In this document: in pieces, positions 57,013-64,000 of the stretch
Layout of the letters: every line of letters begins with the position of its first letter
Position numbering within the stretch: position 1 is the stretch's first letter
From: Candidatus Sericytochromatia bacterium
GTDB taxonomy: Bacteria; Cyanobacteriota; Sericytochromatia; S15B-MN24; UBA4093
Assembly: GCA_036676495.1 (NCBI GenBank)
Contig: JAKFCT010000046.1
Span: 1 to 64,000, forward strand
Length of the DNA stretch: 64,000 nt
Direction of reading: 5' to 3'
Made by a program: the position numbers and the translations under genes
Notes under the pieces: generated by a model
Told to the model about the DNA's origin: nothing
The model's database searches: none
Seen by the model: the letters and a program-made list of their open reading frames with translations, nothing else

Positions 57013-58572
57013 ATGCATATTACGATCGATACCGCGAAGGTCGCCTACGGGCGCGAGCTCGCGCAACGTATCGCCAAGCCGATGCTTGAATACTTCCGCA
57101 GCCACTCGACGCTCGCCACCGAGCGCGCCGTGCTGCGGCTCTACGGCGTGGACGGAGTGGACGAGGCCGGCGTGCCCTGGCCGAACCGGGTGGTCGACGC
57201 CCTGGCCGCCCAGGACAAGCTCGCCCGGGGAGCCTCGTACTGGCTCGCGCATGCGGCGCTGTCGACCGGCAAGTCCATTCAAGAGGCGGCGATCGCCCTG
57301 GCCGAAGGCCAGGTCGACCTCGATGCCCCCATCCCCGACCGGGAGGTCACGGCCTGGGCCGACGATACCGCCGGACGCCTCCTCGACGACCTGCTTGCCA
57401 AGCGTCGTGAGCGCCAGGCCACCCGCGCGCGGCTGGGGCAAGGCCCGAAGCCCTGGCGCTACCTGATCGTCGCCACCGGCAACATCTACGAGGACGTGCC
57501 CCAGGCCGTCGCCGCCGCGCGCGCCGGAGCGGACATCATCGCCGTCATCCGCTCCACCGGGCAATCGCTGATCGACTTCGTCCCCTACGGCCACACCACC
57601 GAGGGCACCGGCGGCACCTACGCCACCGGCGCCAACTTCAAGCTGATGCGCGAAGCCCTCGACGAGGTCGGCGAGGAGTTGGGACGCTACATCCAGCTCA
57701 CCAACTACGCCTCCGGCCTCTGCATGCCCGAGATCACCGCCCTGGCCGCCCAGGAAGGGCTCGACATGCTGCTCAACGACGCCATGTACGGGATCCTCTT
57801 CCGGGACATCAACATCTTCCGGACGCTTTGCGACCAGTACTTCTCGCGCCTGATCTGCGGAGCGACCGACATCATCATCAACACCGGTGAGGACAACTAC
57901 CTCACCACCTCGGACGCCTTCGAGCAGGGCCACACGGTCCTGGCCAGCCAGTTCATCAACGAGAACTTCGCGCTGACGGCCGGCATGCCCCAGCGCCTGA
58001 TGGGCCTCGGCCATGCCTTCGAGATGAACCCCCGCACCCCCAACGGCCTCATGTACGAAATCGCCATGGCCCAGCTGGTGCGGCAGGTCTTCCCGGAGGC
58101 CCCGCTCAAGTACATGCCGCCGACCAAGCACATCACCGGCGACATCTTCCAGGCCCACGCCCATAACGCCCTCTTCAACCTGGTCTCGGTGCTGACCCAC
58201 CAGGAAATCCACCTGATCGGCATCCTGACCGAGGCCATCCACACCCCGTTCGCCTCGGATCGCTTCATGGCGCTCACCAACACCAACTACGTCTTCAACT
58301 ACGCCCAGGACATGGGCGCCGAGCTCGAGTTCAAGGAAGACGGGATCGTCGCCAACCGGGCCCGCGAGGTCCTGGACAAGTCCATCGAACTGCTCGAGGA
58401 AGTCGAGCGCATGGGCATGGTGGAAGCCATCGGCAAGGGCGTCTTCGCCGACGTCAAGCGCGCTCCCGACGGCGGCAAGGGCTACCTCGGCGTCTTCGCG
58501 CGCGCGGCCGATTACATGAATCCCTTTATGACCCGCCTGGAGCGGCTGAATCACGTGGAGGCGCTGCGGTGA
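57013..58572 (+). CDS. kamD: D-lysine/beta-lysine 5,6-aminomutase alpha subunit
   Basis: IVATGNIYED, IAVIRSTGQSL, GGTYAT, NYASGLCMPE, NDAMYGILFRDIN, KYMPPTK. Confidence 0.95.
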   Translation: MHITIDTAKVAYGRELAQRIAKPMLEYFRSHSTLATERAVLRLYGVDGVDEAGVPWPNRVVDALAAQDKLARGASYWLAHAALSTGKSIQEAAIALAEGQVDLDAPIPDREVTAWADDTAGRLLDDLLAKRRERQATRARLGQGPKPWRYLIVATGNIYEDVPQAVAAARAGADIIAVIRSTGQSLIDFVPYGHTTEGTGGTYATGANFKLMREALDEVGEELGRYIQLTNYASGLCMPEITALAAQEGLDMLLNDAMYGILFRDINIFRTLCDQYFSRLICGATDIIINTGEDNYLTTSDAFEQGHTVLASQFINENFALTAGMPQRLMGLGHAFEMNPRTPNGLMYEIAMAQLVRQVFPEAPLKYMPPTKHITGDIFQAHAHNALFNLVSVLTHQEIHLIGILTEAIHTPFASDRFMALTNTNYVFNYAQDMGAELEFKEDGIVANRAREVLDKSIELLEEVERMGMVEAIGKGVFADVKRAPDGGKGYLGVFARAADYMNPFMTRLERLNHVEALR

Positions 58573-59339
58573 GCAACCCAACCTACCCCCGGAAACCCGA
58601 CCTCACCAAGATCCGTCCCTACGGCGACACGCTCGACGACGGGAAGGTCCAGCTGAGCTTCACCCTGCCGGTGCCGGCAGGCCCGGAAGCCTACGAGGCC
58701 GCCAAGCGGCTCGTGCTCATGATGGGCCTCGAGGATCCGTCGATCGTCTCGATGCAGGCGGTCGACCCCACGCTGACCTACTTCATCGTCTACGGCGCCT
58801 GCACCAAGACCGTCGACTTCACCAGCATCTACGTGCCCCGCTCCGAGTTCACCGTCATGGACATGGGTGAAGTGGACGACCTCATCGAGAAGGAATTCGG
58901 GCGCGAGCTGACGATCGTCGGCGCCTGCACCGGCACCGACGCCCATACCGTGGGCATCGACGCCATCATGAACATGAAGGGCTTCAACGGCCACTACGGC
59001 CTGGAGCGCTACCGGATGATCAACGCCATCAACATGGGCGCCCAGGTGCCCAACGAGACGCTGGTGGCTCGGGCGATCGCCGAAAAGGCCGACGCCATCT
59101 TGGTCTCCCAGGTGGTCACCCAGAAGAACCTCCACATCATGACCCTCACGAACCTGATCGAGATCCTCGAGGCCGAAGGCCTGCGCGGCAAGATGGTGGT
59201 GGCGGTCGGCGGCCCCCGGATCACCCACGACCTCGCGACCGAGCTGGGCTTCGACGCGGGCTTCAGCGTGGGCTCCTACGCCGAGGACGTCGCCAGCTTC
59301 GTGGTCCAGGAGCTGATTCGGCGCCGGGACGCCCAGTAA
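58569..59339 (+). CDS. kamE: Lysine 5,6-aminomutase beta subunit (B12-binding)
   Basis: IRPYGDTLDDGKVQLSFTLP, GTDAHTVGIDAIMNMKG, SQVVTQK, GGPRI. Confidence 0.95.
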   Translation: MSNPTYPRKPDLTKIRPYGDTLDDGKVQLSFTLPVPAGPEAYEAAKRLVLMMGLEDPSIVSMQAVDPTLTYFIVYGACTKTVDFTSIYVPRSEFTVMDMGEVDDLIEKEFGRELTIVGACTGTDAHTVGIDAIMNMKGFNGHYGLERYRMINAINMGAQVPNETLVARAIAEKADAILVSQVVTQKNLHIMTLTNLIEILEAEGLRGKMVVAVGGPRITHDLATELGFDAGFSVGSYAEDVASFVVQELIRRRDAQ

Positions 59340-59344
59340 GCCGT

Positions 59345-59422
59345 CCGTCATTCCCGCGAAAGCGGGAATCCAGTAGGCTCCCGCTTTCACGGGAGTGACG
59401 GGGGTTGGGAGCGGGAGTGACG
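59345..59422. repeat. REP/RPE-like palindromic element, copy 3
   Basis: CGTCATTCCCGCGAAAGCGGGAATCCAGTAGGCTCCCGCTTTCACGGGAGTGACG. Confidence 0.8.
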
Positions 59423-59559
59423 GGTGACGGACACTCCCCCGCTCCCGCAACGCGGGAGCGGGGGATTCCTTTTTGAAAAACGCCCCGTCGCCGGTTTGTG
59501 CGCGTTGCGGGAGGTGCTAGATTGGCCTCGGGAACTCCCGCCCCCGAAAGGAGAGGGCC

Positions 59560-60441
59560 ATGCGCGTGCATCACCTCAACTGCGGAACCTGGTGCCCTCC
59601 CGCCGCCCGCCTCTTCAACGGCACCGACGGCTACGCCTCGCCCGGAAAGCTCGTTTGCCACTGCCTGCTCATCGAATCGGACGAGGGCCTCGTCCTCGTC
59701 GACACCGGCCTGGGCGTCCAGGACCTGGAGGACCCGAGCTCCCGCATCGGAGCCGGCTGGACCGCCCTGATGCGCCCCGAGGCCGACCCGGAACAGAGCG
59801 CCCTGCGGCAAGTCGAAGAGCTCGGCTTCTACCACGACGACGTCCGGCACATCATCGTCACCCACCTGGACTTCGACCATGCCGGCGGCATCCCGGACTT
59901 CCCCGAGGCCAAGGTCCACGTCTTCGAACCCGAGTACGAGGCCGCGATGCACCCCGACACCTTCCGGGAGCGCTTCCGCTACAAGCCCAACCAGCTCAAG
60001 CGGGCGCATGAGTGGGTCCGCTACGAACTCGAGGGCGATCGCTGGTTCGGCTTCGACGCGGTCCGCACCCTGGGAGACCTCAACCTCGACATCCTGCTGA
60101 TCCCGCTGGCCGGCCATACCCGCGGCCACTGCGGAGTCGCCGTTCGGACGCCGGAGGGCTGGCTGCTGAACGCCGGAGACGCCTACTTCCATCACGACGA
60201 GCTCTGGAGCAAGGGAGAAGAGCCCCCCCTGGGCCTGAAGCTCTACCAGAGCGTCATGCACATGAACAAGCACAAGCGCCAGGCCAACATGGACCGCCTC
60301 CGTGCGCTCGCCCGGGAGCAATCCCGCCAGGTGAAAATCTTCAGCTCTCATGATCCGTCCGAGCTCGCGGCCTTCCACGAGCCGGAGCTGGTCTACCCGC
60401 CGATCGGGACCGAACCCCGCTTCGGGCGCAGGCCCCGATAG
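59560..60441 (+). CDS. Metallo-beta-lactamase-fold hydrolase
   Basis: VDTG, THLDFDHAGG, GHTRGH, AGDA, terminal HD. Confidence 0.9.
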   Translation: MRVHHLNCGTWCPPAARLFNGTDGYASPGKLVCHCLLIESDEGLVLVDTGLGVQDLEDPSSRIGAGWTALMRPEADPEQSALRQVEELGFYHDDVRHIIVTHLDFDHAGGIPDFPEAKVHVFEPEYEAAMHPDTFRERFRYKPNQLKRAHEWVRYELEGDRWFGFDAVRTLGDLNLDILLIPLAGHTRGHCGVAVRTPEGWLLNAGDAYFHHDELWSKGEEPPLGLKLYQSVMHMNKHKRQANMDRLRALAREQSRQVKIFSSHDPSELAAFHEPELVYPPIGTEPRFGRRPR

Positions 60442-61343
60442 GCCTCGGAGCGCCAGATCCACCAGGGCTCGCGCGTCTCCGTGACGATGGTCTCCGGAGG
60501 GAAGAGCTTGCGCACCGCCCGGTTGAGATCGCACCACATGAAGCGGATGCCCGAGCACGCCCGCGCCCGGGTCCGCTCCTGCAGCCTCCGGATCAGCATC
60601 GGCGCGAGTCCGCCTCCCTGCACGTCCCGGCTGAGCGCCAGCTCGTAGAGGAAGACCTCGTCGGGAGCGGAAAGCGTGGCGATGAGTACCCCCACGAGCC
60701 GCTCCCCGTCCAGCACCATGGCGCTCACGTCCGGCAAGAAAGTCCCGAAACGGCCTTCCCGGATCTCAGCGAGCCGCGTCATGCAGGCCTCGGGGGTGGG
60801 CAGCTCGGGAAAACACAGGAACAAGCCGTCGATCGTGCCCTGGGTGCTGGCTGAAAGCAGGCTGGCCGCCTCCGGGTCGCGGGCCGGATCCCAGTCGATC
60901 AGCCGGAAGGGCTCGGGGACGTCCAGGGGCGCCGGAGGCACGCGGCAGAGCTCCTGGACCATGTCGATCCGCTCGATGCGCTGAAAGCCGTGCCGCTTCA
61001 GGCCAGGGGCCAGCACGGCCTCTCCGAAGCGCTCGGGAGCCATGAGCGCGAGGGTGCCGGCGGCTTGAAGGGGGGCGATCGCCGCCTCCAGGAGCGCTTC
61101 GCGCGCTTGCGGGTCCCGCGCGTAGAGGCCGCCCAGGATCCGGACCTCCTGACCCGGCAGGAAGGCGAAGCCACGGGGTCCCTGAGGCATGGCCCAGATT
61201 CGCAGGTGCTCGGGAGTCGCGAAGACGGCGTCGCGGAGGCCCACCACCTCGGGGGCCTCCGCGGCGAACTCCGCGAGCAAGGTTTCGACGGCCAGGAAAT
61301 CCAGCGGGTGAAACGCTCGGAGCAAGCTACTTCCGATCGGCAA
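60393..61343 (-). CDS. GNAT-family acyltransferase, probably two GNAT domains
   Basis: C-terminal FLYELALSRDVQGGGLA (motif A); N-terminal half ends in LKRHGF; overlaps the upstream gene by 17 nt. Confidence 0.75.
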   Translation of the reverse strand: MPIGSSLLRAFHPLDFLAVETLLAEFAAEAPEVVGLRDAVFATPEHLRIWAMPQGPRGFAFLPGQEVRILGGLYARDPQAREALLEAAIAPLQAAGTLALMAPERFGEAVLAPGLKRHGFQRIERIDMVQELCRVPPAPLDVPEPFRLIDWDPARDPEAASLLSASTQGTIDGLFLCFPELPTPEACMTRLAEIREGRFGTFLPDVSAMVLDGERLVGVLIATLSAPDEVFLYELALSRDVQGGGLAPMLIRRLQERTRARACSGIRFMWCDLNRAVRKLFPPETIVTETREPWWIWRSEAYRGLRPKRGSVPIGG

Positions 61344-62289
61344 AGGGATTGGTCCCCGGCATCATGCGCCGGGTCTGCTTACCCAGGGGCTGGGTGGACT
61401 TCGCAGGCGAGGTGAGGGAGCCGGACTTGCCGGGAGTGGCGGACTGCTTGAAGGGCGGCTCGGCGGCCGGGGCCGCGTTGGCGAAGAGCTCCGCCAGCTC
61501 GGGATAAGGAGCGAGTTGCTCGGCCAGGCGCTCGAGGTAGAACATCTTGCCGCGAAGCTTGTAGAAAGCGCTCGTGTTTCCCAGGAGATGGGAGAGCTCC
61601 CAGTCGTACTCTCCGACTCCCTTGAGGGCCCGGTAGGCCTCCTTGAGCAAGGCCTGGGTATCCTGGAAATGCGTGATCGCCAGGGAGAGGACGGGCTTGA
61701 TCTCGGGGGCGTTCGCGACGGCGGTGGCGGCCCGGGAAACGCGGATCGGATCGACCGTCGTGTCCGGCAGCAACGGCTGCTCGGGGTTCAGGATGCGCTG
61801 CACGATCAGGACGGGCTCTTGGACATCCGCCAGCAGCAAACGCGCAGCCGCCGCATCCACCTGGGCTTTGGCCAGGAGGTACGGCTTGCTCTGGGTCGAG
61901 TCGGAGAACTGGACGTCCTGGGGGGCGGCCGCCGCGAGGCCGGCCCGGATGGATTCCAGGTTGGCCCGGTAATCATGGCTTTGGATCGCGACCATGGCCT
62001 TGCTTGCCTGGTAAAGCTCCTGGCTGGCCCGAAGCTTCTCGAGGAGCGGCCCATCACCCGGCGCCGGAGGCCCCGCCTCGACCTCCGCGATGAAGGGGGT
62101 CAGCTGGGAGATCATCCGGTCGTAGTAGGCAACGCGCTCGAGGTTCTGCTTCAGCAGGCCGTCGAGCTGAGCCAGACGGGCACGGGAGTCCCGCTGCACC
62201 TGCTCCTGGAGCTCCGTGAATTGCTTGCGCAGCGCCTCTTCCTCGGCGATCTCCGCGGGGCTCCGGGGCTGGGGGTTAGGGTTGGCCAT
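61327..62289 (-). CDS. Hypothetical helical protein, large subunit of module copy 2
   Basis: Paralogue of 62584-63567 (shared EKLxAS, ANLE, YLLAKA, DWxL, KLxGK). Confidence 0.8.
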   Translation of the reverse strand: MANPNPQPRSPAEIAEEEALRKQFTELQEQVQRDSRARLAQLDGLLKQNLERVAYYDRMISQLTPFIAEVEAGPPAPGDGPLLEKLRASQELYQASKAMVAIQSHDYRANLESIRAGLAAAAPQDVQFSDSTQSKPYLLAKAQVDAAAARLLLADVQEPVLIVQRILNPEQPLLPDTTVDPIRVSRAATAVANAPEIKPVLSLAITHFQDTQALLKEAYRALKGVGEYDWELSHLLGNTSAFYKLRGKMFYLERLAEQLAPYPELAELFANAAPAAEPPFKQSATPGKSGSLTSPAKSTQPLGKQTRRMMPGTNPFADRK

Positions 62290-62301
62290 GTCGCTTCAGG
62301 C

Positions 62302-62556
62302 TCAGCTCCGCTGCAAGGTCAGCGAGCGCTGCTGGCGCATCCGCTCGAGCGCTTGATCGTCCACGGCCCGCTGGGCGGCGGCATCCGCACGCTGATTGTC
62401 TTGCTGATTGCCCCGCATGGCCTGGCTCATGGAGTTCAGGCCGCTCTGGATGCCTTGCAGCATTTGAATGCCCTGCTGAAGGACCCGTGAGACCTGGTTG
62501 ACGATGTTGCTGACCTGATTGACGACGTTGCCGATGGCTTTGACTGCACCGCCCAT
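62302..62556 (-). CDS. Small MGGAV heptad-repeat protein, module copy 2
   Basis: TAAGGAGG RBS; MGGAVKAIGNVVNQVSNIVNQVS. Confidence 0.8.
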   Translation of the reverse strand: MGGAVKAIGNVVNQVSNIVNQVSRVLQQGIQMLQGIQSGLNSMSQAMRGNQQDNQRADAAAQRAVDDQALERMRQQRSLTLQRS

Positions 62557-62583
62557 GACGGACCTCCTTATCGGTTTAGGAGC

Positions 62584-63567
62584 TTATCCCTGCTTGTTGA
62601 GGAGCCGGCCCGTGCCGCCCAGGTTGCCGGTCTGACCGGGCTTGGATGGCCCCAGCTTGCCCGTCTGGTTGAGGCGGCCGGTGCCGGCGCCGGTCACCGG
62701 AGCGGGGGTCATCCAGGCATGCTCGCGCTGGTAGGGAGGGGGCTCGACGGGCTCGGGCTTCAGGAAGATCTCGGCGAGCGGCGTGCCTTCCACCTGCTCC
62801 GGCAGGCGGTCCAGCTGGAGGAGCTTGCCCTTGAGCTTGCCCCAGACCTTGTCGCCGAACTCGTGGATCAGATCGAGGGACCAGTCGAACTTCCGGATGC
62901 CGCGGACGACCTTCTTGCCTTCCTCGACGAGGTCGCGGGACTCCTTGAAGGTCGAGAGCGCGAGGTTCATCTCGATCTTGAGCTTGGAATCCTTGTCGAG
63001 GCAATCCTTGATCTGCAGGACCAGCGGATTGTCGACGTCCTTGCGCTGAGGGGCGAAGTACCATTCGAGGATGGACATCGGCAGGCCGTGGCCGGCCAGC
63101 TTCAGCCGCGCTCCCGCGACGTCGGTCTCGGCCTTGGCCAGCAGGTACTCGGGAGCCTCGCTGATATCCGTGAACTTGGCCTCCGGGTTGAGCTCGCCCG
63201 AGGCGATCTCGAGGTTGGCCTTCATCTCCCCCATCTGCAGCTCGACGAGGCGGATGCCCGCTTCGTAGAGGTCCAGGCTGGCCTGGAGCTTCTCGCCGAT
63301 CATCTCGGCGTAAGGGGAGGGAGGAACGGACTCCATTTCCTTGAGAAGCGGCCGCAGCTCGGCCAGCTGCGCCTGCAGGAAGGCCAGGCGAGCCTGGTTC
63401 TCCTGGATCATGTCGGTCAAGGCGTTGCGGGTCTGGCCGGAGATCTGCGTCACTTTCGCGGTGATCTGCTCCAGCTCCCCGCGAAGACGCTCGGCTTCGG
63501 CCTGAAGGCGCGCCTCCTCGGCGGCTTCCTCGGGGGTCTGGATGGGGCCCGTTCCTCGGTTCTGCAT
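62584..63567 (-). CDS. Hypothetical helical protein, large subunit of module copy 1
   Basis: AAAAAGGA RBS; coiled-coil N-terminus; C-terminal TGxL repeats. Confidence 0.8.
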   Translation of the reverse strand: MQNRGTGPIQTPEEAAEEARLQAEAERLRGELEQITAKVTQISGQTRNALTDMIQENQARLAFLQAQLAELRPLLKEMESVPPSPYAEMIGEKLQASLDLYEAGIRLVELQMGEMKANLEIASGELNPEAKFTDISEAPEYLLAKAETDVAGARLKLAGHGLPMSILEWYFAPQRKDVDNPLVLQIKDCLDKDSKLKIEMNLALSTFKESRDLVEEGKKVVRGIRKFDWSLDLIHEFGDKVWGKLKGKLLQLDRLPEQVEGTPLAEIFLKPEPVEPPPYQREHAWMTPAPVTGAGTGRLNQTGKLGPSKPGQTGNLGGTGRLLNKQG

Positions 63568-63599
63568 GATGTGTTTTTCCTTTTTAGGTTACCAGCGCC

Positions 63600-63929
63600 T
63601 TAGAACGCCTGGCGAACGGCCTGAACGGCTGAGTTGAGCTGTTGGAAGGGTTGGGCGATGTTCTGAACCTGACCGGAGGCCCGCTGGAGGAAGCCGCCCA
63701 CTTCGTTGCCGGCCGAGCGAGCGACGTTCGCCCAATCGTCCACCGAGCGCGCTTCCTGAGCCCGCTGCCGGATGCCGTCGAAGATCTTGCCGAAGTCCCC
63801 GAACATGTTGCTGAAGCTCGAGATGGCCCCCGAGATGTTGTTGACGATGTTGCCGATCGAGCTGATGGCGTTGCCGATCCCCTGGACCGCGTTGGCGACG
63901 TTGCTGATGGCGTTGACTGCTCCACCCAT
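63600..63929 (-). CDS. Small MGGAV heptad-repeat protein, module copy 1 (109 aa)
   Basis: GAGAGGAGG RBS before ATG 63929; MGGAVNAISNVANAVQGIGNAISSIGN. Confidence 0.8.
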   Translation of the reverse strand: MGGAVNAISNVANAVQGIGNAISSIGNIVNNISGAISSFSNMFGDFGKIFDGIRQRAQEARSVDDWANVARSAGNEVGGFLQRASGQVQNIAQPFQQLNSAVQAVRQAF

Positions 63930-64000
63930 GGTTGGCCTCCTCTCAACTTTCCCTGTTACATCAGGACGAGAATCGCGTTGCTGCTCCTCTTGTACCAAGT

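Follow-up and report, generated by a model that had tools for sequence, protein, structure and literature searches.

Co-encoded helical pairs, in which a small helical subunit is held in a bundle by its partner, are known from PE/PPE proteins, YscF with YscE/YscG, EspA with CesA and FliC with FliS. N-myristoyltransferase carries two GNAT-fold halves in one chain, and its substrates, e.g., Arf, begin with Met-Gly followed by an amphipathic helix. To our knowledge, protein N-terminal acetyltransferases that are encoded beside their own substrate are hardly known in bacteria. Here we describe a five-gene locus of Candidatus Sericytochromatia bacterium (NCBI GenBank assembly GCA_036676495.1, contig JAKFCT010000046.1) that encodes two small helical proteins starting with Met-Gly-Gly (small1 and small2), two large helical proteins (large1 and large2) and a tandem-GNAT acyltransferase (GNAT). 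The locus lies on the minus strand of the stretch analyzed, the first 64 kb (64,000 nucleotides; hereafter the window) of an 81-kb contig from a draft genome of 4.1 Mb that is 92% complete. Sericytochromatia are uncultured, and their specific biology is almost unknown. Small protein(s), large protein and GNAT form a self-contained three-component module that is restricted to one lineage of this class.

The WXG100 proteins EsxA/EsxB and their modifying enzyme offer the first comparison. The mycobacterial N-terminal acetyltransferase Emp1 is reported to be a GNAT dedicated to the small helical substrate EsxA (PMC10653941); as here, proteins of about 100 amino acids are encoded with a partner, and one of them is modified at its N-terminus by a dedicated GNAT. 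The proteins in the window have no WXG motif, however (small2 is without Trp, and small1 has W-A-N), and no match to PF06013 at E up to 1, which speaks against the WXG100 membership that the earlier note on this DNA, made from the sequence alone, had named as one that would refute its reading. The partner is moreover three times larger here, and the GNAT is a tandem one in the same operon. PE/PPE proteins and the type III and flagellar subunit-chaperone pairs likewise have a co-encoded helical partner and tandem-duplicated gene pairs, but the present proteins match none of these families in Pfam or NCBIfam, adjoin no secretion system and include a large protein that is far longer than those chaperones. 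The tandem GNATs MshD, MAB_4324, VipF, Eis and NpuN share the two-domain GNAT fold with a catalytic C-terminal half, although none is known to have a co-encoded cognate small substrate and holder. RimI, Ard1 and Naa10/30 supply the best profile matches and the lowest-deviation structures for the catalytic half, whereas the GNAT described here has an extra N-terminal GNAT-like domain and is not a RimI equivalog. N-myristoyltransferase resembles the system in its two GNAT halves and in its Met-Gly-amphipathic-helix substrates, which are like the small proteins, but the GNAT has no N-myristoyltransferase Pfam match at E up to 1, and that enzyme is absent among the best 50 matches of both fold searches. 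The substrates of VipF, Eis and NpuN are proteins or peptides (for NpuN, see PMC13060382). The small and large proteins and the triad are undescribed in the families, structures and papers searched, supplementary files aside. Altogether, the module is real and undescribed, and it is new as a system and not in its folds, since the coiled coil and the GNAT are ordinary.

Five co-oriented genes in the window

The earlier note had described five co-oriented, tightly spaced genes in the order small1-large1-small2-large2-GNAT, and the minus-strand open reading frame coordinates bear this out. The features, with the evidence for each, are as follows.

63600..63929, minus strand: small1, a 109-amino-acid helical protein starting with Met-Gly-Gly (open reading frame list, composition, orthologues, profile A3)
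63936..63942, minus strand: Shine-Dalgarno site GAGGAGG, 6 nucleotides before the small1 ATG (upstream sequence)
62584..63567, minus strand: large1, a 327-amino-acid all-helical protein (open reading frame list, AlphaFold2 model, family alignment A1)
62563..62569, minus strand: Shine-Dalgarno site AAGGAGG, 6 nucleotides before the small2 ATG, within the 27-nucleotide gap between large1 and small2
62302..62556, minus strand: small2, an 84-amino-acid paralogue of small1 starting with Met-Gly-Gly (open reading frame list, BLAST, alignment, orthologues)
61327..62289, minus strand: large2, a 320-amino-acid paralogue of large1 (BLAST E 9e-28, tree)
60393..61343, minus strand: GNAT, a 316-amino-acid tandem-GNAT acyltransferase (Pfam, alignment A4, model, fold matches, profile search of solved structures)

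The successive intergenic gaps are 32, 27, 12 and -17 nucleotides, the GNAT start overlapping the large2 end by 17 nucleotides. The longest open reading frame containing small1 extends to 63998, and its 109 amino acids are counted from the Met of Met-Gly-Gly. The ribosome-binding sites before both small genes are strong, as the note had held, and those before the large genes are weak or absent. Searches in and around the five genes for Rfam families, consensus promoters and intrinsic terminators found none.

The two large proteins are indeed diverged paralogues (32% identity over 257 columns), and every motif that had been listed as common to them lies within the alignment. The likeness claimed for the two small proteins is weak by BLAST, where the match at E 1e-5 is an out-of-register repeat match and the in-register N-terminal match has an E of 0.39; in a MAFFT alignment the two are nevertheless 34% identical, and small1 is 26% or less identical to any other aligned small protein. 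Both small1 and small2 have orthologues in two genomes of the same genus. None of the four small and large proteins has a signal peptide that is apparent by inspection of the N-termini, and none was assigned to a known family by Pfam or NCBIfam, by Foldseek, an exhaustive structural aligner and ESM Atlas (all three with large1) or by a profile search of solved structures (small proteins); both statements agree with the note. What Pfam, NCBIfam, PADLOC and PHROGs returned for these four proteins stayed below threshold and was of a coiled-coil or low-complexity kind. Further copies or an export apparatus beyond base 64,000, which the note had proposed to look for, were sought and not found, and a genome-wide scan for other open reading frames starting with Met-Gly-Gly returned 137 mostly spurious frames and no additional clear member.

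The module is conserved across one order of Sericytochromatia

Relatives of the GNAT were found in 18 of the 27 genomes of the order (19 matches in all), and a profile of nine small proteins (A3) had matches in 19 of them. Neither was found in six of the seven genomes that belong to genera g2, g3 and g4, and the remaining one, G009, gave a single weak match (E 0.0046) inside a 404-amino-acid frame. Twenty loci were fetched and their open reading frames scored with the large, small and GNAT profiles, and 18 of these loci, all from other genomes, hold the GNAT. In 17 of the 18, the gene immediately upstream of the GNAT, in the same orientation, belongs to the large family, and in 15 of these the large gene is itself preceded by one to five small genes. 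The two loci without a detected small gene are one that is cut by the contig end and one that has a small-like gene starting Met-Phe-Gly; the eighteenth is a lone GNAT (L070). A public record from the same genus has the same gene order as the window. The co-occurrence of small, large and GNAT genes, which had been put forward as a check, is therefore that of a conserved unit.

The flanks of the module vary by family, with lysine genes in the genus of the window (g1), MutS in genus g7, and a NERD and double Ser/Thr kinase gene and UvrB in family f3; the three genes therefore travel as a self-contained unit. No export apparatus adjoins the module in other genomes, and no maturase, protease, exporter, transporter, leader or mobile-element context was found, in the 20 loci examined.

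The large family is rare and confined to this order. A profile of 19 large-family members (A1) had matches in 27 of the 47 genomes of the class, namely the present genome and all 26 others of its order (f1, 9/9; f2, 1/1; f3, 8/8; f4, 8/8), and in none of the 20 genomes of the other orders of the class. Across the phylum, 27 of 251 sampled genomes were matched, with 0 of 224 outside the one Sericytochromatia order. A search for the large family among 5.8 billion protein clusters (word-indexed) found 12 proteins, none named beyond 'hypothetical', and the A1 profile found nothing in that database beyond the single-protein search; an exhaustive phmmer search with large2 of 1.84 billion representatives found seven. 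The corresponding database search with A3 returned 16 proteins, all 'hypothetical' or unnamed, of which the four labeled with an organism are Sericytochromatia or cyanobacterial metagenome bins.

The earlier note had also proposed that each small protein is paired with a cognate partner and that the pair was duplicated as a unit. In a maximum-likelihood tree of 23 full-length, module-linked large proteins, the topology follows taxonomy, and one starred clade (97/95) unites the large1 and large2 clades with the single-copy large protein of genome G010, so that the tandem duplication is confined to this lineage. Duplication of the pair thus holds within this lineage, where small1 also has small2 as its closest aligned relative, but not in general, as most genomes have one module-linked large gene. 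Similarly, pairing of a small protein with a large partner is supported by the complex model described below, but 'one small, one cognate large' is not a rule, because genus g7 (L063, L064, L065) has three to five diverged tandem small genes followed by one large gene and one GNAT. In that genus the large protein must therefore serve several small paralogues.

Small proteins with an invariant Met-Gly-Gly start

The small proteins compared comprise 29 distinct sequences of 78-156 amino acids (26 from the fetched loci, the two in the window and one from G021), and all of them begin with M-G-G-[AVI]-[AVI]-x-x-[IV], each behind a purine-rich Shine-Dalgarno site. Only M1, G2 and G3 are invariant throughout their alignment, which contains no conserved Lys. 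These starts were found by seeking Met-Gly-Gly within the longest frames, such that independent support comes from the ribosome-binding site and from conservation: the start stands behind a GGAGG-like site in 26 of the 28 small open reading frames of the fetched loci, the remaining two being one truncated at a contig end and one with a Met-Gln-Gly start.

Gly, Ala, Ser, Asn and Ile/Val abound in the N-terminal half of the small proteins, which forms an amphipathic helix. In small1 this half is amphipathic and heptad-like, the first charged residue is at position 45, and the most hydrophobic 18-residue window has a Kyte-Doolittle value of 0.82, which is not that of a membrane span. The best matches of the A3 profile among solved structures were designed antiparallel coiled-coil barrels (E 5e-4 and 9e-4), along with a chemoreceptor coiled coil; the barrel matches mean that there are heptads with small residues on the flanks, and nothing more. 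A weak resemblance of small1 to segments of phage tape-measure proteins in PHROGs (E 3e-4 to 2e-3) was taken as compositional and set aside.

The large protein and its predicted complex with the small protein

The AlphaFold2 model of large1 (mean predicted local distance difference test score, pLDDT, 80.1) is all-helical, with a long coiled-coil hairpin formed by helices 12-78 and 85-123, further helices up to residue 266, a helical C-terminal domain and a disordered tail at 286-327. Foldseek returned no match to it at E 0.001 or below, the best being an F-BAR domain at E 0.023, and ESM Atlas gave no match of use. The exhaustive structural aligner (VIA) placed the Orai channel first at Z 11.3, a match that was rejected as helical noise, given the tool's noise mark of about Z 13 for helical bundles. 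Also below this mark were many BAR and ESCRT-III entries at Z 8-10, among them the F-BARx domain of srGAP2 (Z 9.9), FAM92A1 (Z 9.9), an SNX-BAR (Z 9.5) and CHMP1B/IST1 (Z 8.9), and the N-terminal region of IpaB (Z 8.4) is within the helical noise as well.

The complex of large1 residues 1-285 with small1 was predicted in three runs, each chain with its own alignment, alongside three controls. The interface score ipSAE was 0.87, 0.02 and 0.63 (median 0.63), and the best of the three controls scored 0.00; in calibration, 58 of 80 solved complexes but only 2 of 110 mismatched pairs scored as high as this median. The runs share at least 3% of contacts, and the partner pLDDT is at least 53. In the predicted interface, residues 21-109 of small1 contact large1 at 14-186, along the hairpin, and at 266-285, with the first 20 residues of small1 remaining outside. 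Recall of a memorized structure is an unlikely source of this prediction, because no like complex is known. Taken together, the model supports binding of small1 to large1.

Most genomes hold several large-family members or partial relatives that share the C-terminal domain (up to 10 matches per genome), and one branch (type B) is preceded by small helical proteins that do not start with Met-Gly-Gly and has no adjacent GNAT. The sole invariant Lys of the large family, K248, is retained in the type-B members that are without a GNAT. Type-B loci were seen at L073 (G001:C41, 2593-6005), in the present genome (C40:543-1379) and at L028/L029. A genome of the same genus has two identical copies of the small protein. 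VWD proteins (PF00094, E 1e-6) are encoded downstream of the branch, and in genus g4 it follows a YjfB motility gene; the 81-amino-acid protein is the one with a needle-like Pfam match. The type-B small proteins were considered as needles and rejected as such, since that match, at E 0.0054, is below the cut-off and a search of solved structures with their profile gave no needle.

The disordered tails of the large family (large1 286-327 and the tail of large2) contain a recurring short motif, T-x-P-L-x-G, and an N-P-F-[AG]-D motif occurs in the tails of large2 and a paralogue. Some paralogues end in a short amphipathic stretch such as G-L-L-G-K-L-K-G-F-F-K, which may resemble the membrane-targeting helix of MinD.

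The acyltransferase is a tandem GNAT

The GNAT passes the Pfam gathering score of PF00583 (27.0 bits against a cut-off of 20.7) over residues 204-280, in its C-terminal half. The coenzyme A (CoA) P-loop is found in this half alone, where it reads Q-G-G-G-L-A in the GNAT of the window and R-G-x-G-L-A in the consensus of the family (alignment A4), and the N-terminal half is GNAT-like without a CoA P-loop. The protein accordingly belongs to the GNAT superfamily by Pfam score and P-loop, and its model (pLDDT 85.8) is that of a tandem GNAT that aligns over its full length with solved tandem GNATs. The exhaustive aligner matched it to MshD (1ozp; Z 19.3, 272 residues, root-mean-square deviation (rmsd) 5.9), MAB_4324 (7q3a; Z 19.2, 274 residues) and VipF (Z 15.9); Foldseek ranked MAB_4324 first (E 9e-13), followed by VipF, glucosamine N-acetyltransferase, MshD and a clavulanate-pathway tandem GNAT, with tandem-GNAT matches spanning E 9e-13 to 1e-9 and a sequence identity to tandem GNATs of 9-15%. 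ESM Atlas returned generic GNAT clusters only.

When the catalytic half was aligned alone, RimI (Z 14.6, rmsd 2.0 over 129 residues), archaeal Ard1 (Z 14.6-14.8, rmsd 2.3-2.6) and Naa30 (Z 14.2) were matched. The GNAT family profile, searched against solved-structure sequences, also found RimI best (E 4e-8 and 9e-8), then YycN and YpeA, with Naa30, Naa10 and Naa40 lower. Assignment as a RimI equivalog was rejected, because TIGR01575 scored 14.1 bits against a cut-off of 86.4; the catalytic core alone resembles RimI.

A proposed mechanism and its alternatives

These data indicate that the module is probably a functional unit in which the small and large proteins form a complex. In the mechanism that we propose, one or more small helical proteins, presumably highly translated, would carry the invariant Met-Gly-Gly followed by an amphipathic helix rich in small residues. 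The hairpin of the large coiled-coil protein is predicted to bind the small protein at the latter's middle and C-terminal helices, leaving about its first 20 residues free, and the large protein would most likely be a holder or scaffold by which the small one is kept soluble or unassembled. Glycine at position 2 favors the action of methionine aminopeptidase, and the Met of the small protein would probably be removed. The tandem GNAT would then most likely acetylate or otherwise acylate the alpha-amino group of the exposed Gly, with the remainder of the small protein meanwhile bound to the large one. We infer capping of this Gly because Met-Gly-Gly is the only strictly conserved feature of small proteins that have no conserved Lys, because the type-B members, with their different small proteins, have no GNAT neighbor, and because the catalytic half is like N-terminal acetyltransferases. 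Capping would remove the sole charge at the start of the amphipathic helix, and the capped helix might pack into a helical bundle or against a membrane; N-terminal acetylation promotes the coiled-coil assembly of tropomyosin and the membrane binding of N-terminal amphipathic helices. In the genus of the window, where the small-large pair appears to have been duplicated in tandem, one GNAT would be common to both pairs. The full chain, from holding of the small protein by the large one to capping of the small protein's N-terminal Gly by the GNAT, is put forward tentatively, as a proposal with somewhat less than an even claim to be right. An extended form, in which the GNAT adds an acetyl or longer acyl group to Gly2, as N-myristoyltransferase does on Arf-type proteins, and acylation switches the small proteins from a soluble holder complex to a membrane-bound or barrel-like assembly, is improbable by comparison; if it were true, a dedicated enzyme-substrate-holder triad of this kind would be one not described in bacteria.

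Several observations weigh against this mechanism. Met-Gly-Gly is the first possible start in 12 of 26 small genes, the other starts resting on the ribosome-binding site, and in G015 (L059; G015:C2, 5113-5562) a small-like gene starts Met-Phe-Gly behind GAGGAGG although the GNAT is present. Small-large pairs without an adjacent GNAT occur in G021 (C392), G023 (C52) and G017 (C40); two of the three have a complete module at another locus, but in G021, which is 93% complete, a search with the window GNAT found no GNAT anywhere. One of the three complex runs failed at 0.02, and the input alignments were self-built. Polyamine and aminoglycoside acetyltransferases tie in Z with the N-terminal acetyltransferases, and the whole-length matches of the GNAT are small-molecule enzymes (MshD, glucosamine N-acetyltransferase), such that the substrate of the GNAT is not readable from its fold. 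Acetylation of the small proteins is a candidate activity.

Among the other explanations, the most attractive is a flagellar-type type III export system, in which the small proteins would be filament, needle-like or regulatory subunits, the large protein a chaperone that docks by its disordered tail, and the GNAT an enzyme that tunes the secretion signal. It is compatible with the mechanism proposed above, and, although we consider it unlikely, several features point to it: the genome encodes flagella, with two full FlhA genes and a pair of FlhB genes; in both this genome and genus g2, a partial large-family relative adjoins the second flhB; the complex model leaves the first 20 residues of small1 unbound; and the type-B branch, which is preceded by helical proteins of 73-81 amino acids (best Pfam match T3SS_needle_F, E 0.0054, 17.3 bits against a cut-off of 29.4), has a YjfB motility gene nearby (27.5 bits against a cut-off of 27) and is followed by VWD-domain proteins with no signal peptide. 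The needle and chaperone evidence never reaches a curated cut-off, however. PF09392 is without a match in the whole genome at E up to 1, small1 and small2 included; the profile of the type-B needle-like proteins does not find a needle among solved structures; no chaperone family of Pfam or NCBIfam was matched, including FliS, FlgN and FliT; and type-A modules never adjoin flagellar or secretion genes in the 20 loci. It is somewhat less probable still that the module is a membrane-shaping or cytoskeleton-like scaffold, with the large protein as a BAR- or ESCRT-III-like peripheral coiled coil and the small proteins as co-polymers or membrane-inserting partners. The structural neighbors of large1 do include many BAR domains and ESCRT-III proteins (Z 8.9-9.9), genomes hold multiple paralogues (up to 10 matches) with a common C-terminal domain, and some of these have the amphipathic, presumably MinD-like end; yet values of Z 8-11 are within the aligner's noise for helical bundles, Foldseek found nothing at E 0.001 or below, no PspA, BAR or Snf7 Pfam match was obtained, and the tails of large1 and large2 are not clearly amphipathic.

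That the small proteins are pore-forming toxins or bacteriocins, neutralized by the large protein and matured or detoxified by the GNAT, is quite unlikely. The long amphipathic helices of the small proteins, the arrays of three to five diverged small genes before one large gene in genus g7 and the coiled-coil barrels at the top of the A3 matches (E 5e-4) would fit such a role, but the loci are without transporter, peptidase, leader or mobile-element context, the tree of the large proteins follows taxonomy and so indicates vertical descent, and the small proteins are long (78-156 amino acids), with polar C-terminal halves that form the predicted interface. PADLOC also found nothing significant, its best match (E 0.0025) being to the coiled-coil part of LeoB, with none for small2, large2 or the GNAT, and the locus does not correspond to a known anti-phage system. 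A ribosomal peptide pathway, with the small proteins as precursors whose side chains are acylated by the tandem GNAT, as in lipidated cyanobacterial lanthipeptides, is very unlikely. In its favor, the tandem GNAT NpuN acylates Lys of ribosomal peptides in Nostoc (PMC13060382), and in some genomes the multi-copy small proteins are conserved in their N-terminal part and variable in the C-terminal one. The small proteins have no conserved Lys, however, no other maturase, protease or exporter is present at any locus examined, and a stable helical small-large complex is predicted. The scaffold, toxin-immunity and ribosomal-peptide explanations each have weak indications in their favor, and the companions expected for each are absent. 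Least probable of all, and hardly credible, is that the GNAT is the beta-lysine acetyltransferase of the neighboring lysine pathway and that its position next to the small and large genes is fortuitous. Such enzymes are GNATs whose genes stand beside that for lysine 2,3-aminomutase, and in this genus the module does sit between the lysine 5,6-aminomutase and the kal-kce-kdd-kamA genes. This explanation is contradicted by synteny, as the GNAT keeps its position after the large gene in 17 loci and lysine flanks are not found outside genus g1; furthermore, the GNAT is on the strand opposite to the lysine genes and has no match to the NCBIfam beta-lysine acetyltransferase family (AblB), to which it therefore does not belong.

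Neighboring genes and further observations

The module in the window is flanked by lysine-fermentation genes on the opposite strand. On one flank are genes for lysine 5,6-aminomutase alpha and beta and a lactonase-like gene of the metallo-beta-lactamase fold, the latter convergent with the GNAT and overlapping its 3' end by about 49 nucleotides; on the other are those for 3-aminobutyryl-CoA ammonia lyase (KAL), 3-keto-5-aminohexanoate cleavage enzyme (KCE), 3,5-diaminohexanoate dehydrogenase (KDD) and a KamA-family aminomutase. Together, positions 57013-60441 of the window and 3157-7378 of L003 (contig 64185-68406) hold a complete-looking lysine fermentation set, which is split by the module in genus g1. 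In seven loci of family f3 (L059-L062 and L067-L069), the GNAT faces, in convergent orientation, a gene for a protein of about 850-950 amino acids that carries two Ser/Thr kinase domains, with NERD matched in five, and an AMIN/CarboxypepD_reg gene stands upstream of the small gene in four.

Elsewhere in the genome, two full FlhA genes, two FlhB genes and two FlhA C-terminal fragments were located (C38:27385-30543, C45:57945-60059 and C42:5944-7188), the other flagellar genes being single. A 313-amino-acid protein with the large-family C-terminal domain (C42:4990-5931) is encoded convergent to the second flhB, and the same is seen in G006 (L039).

RNA-labeled contigs from one library, of a relative that is 85-99% alike, map to window positions 63012-63871 and 61478-62431, where they span both small genes, the 5' part of large1 and portions of large2, with no coverage of the GNAT. 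The highest contig depth is at small1; this is no proof of transcription, and neither transcription nor silence follows from such contigs.

Significance

The folds involved are ordinary and the known range of the module is one uncultured order, which bounds the breadth of the finding. Within that range, an invariant Met-Gly-Gly, a predicted holder and a tandem GNAT travel together as a directly testable enzyme-substrate pair. Should the proposed mechanism be wrong, three unannotated families with a clear co-occurrence rule would still have been found. The large family is order-specific and multi-copy, and it therefore probably marks a cell-biological trait of the group; if modification controls the assembly or membrane binding of the small helices, the module would represent a new bacterial N-terminal capping switch.

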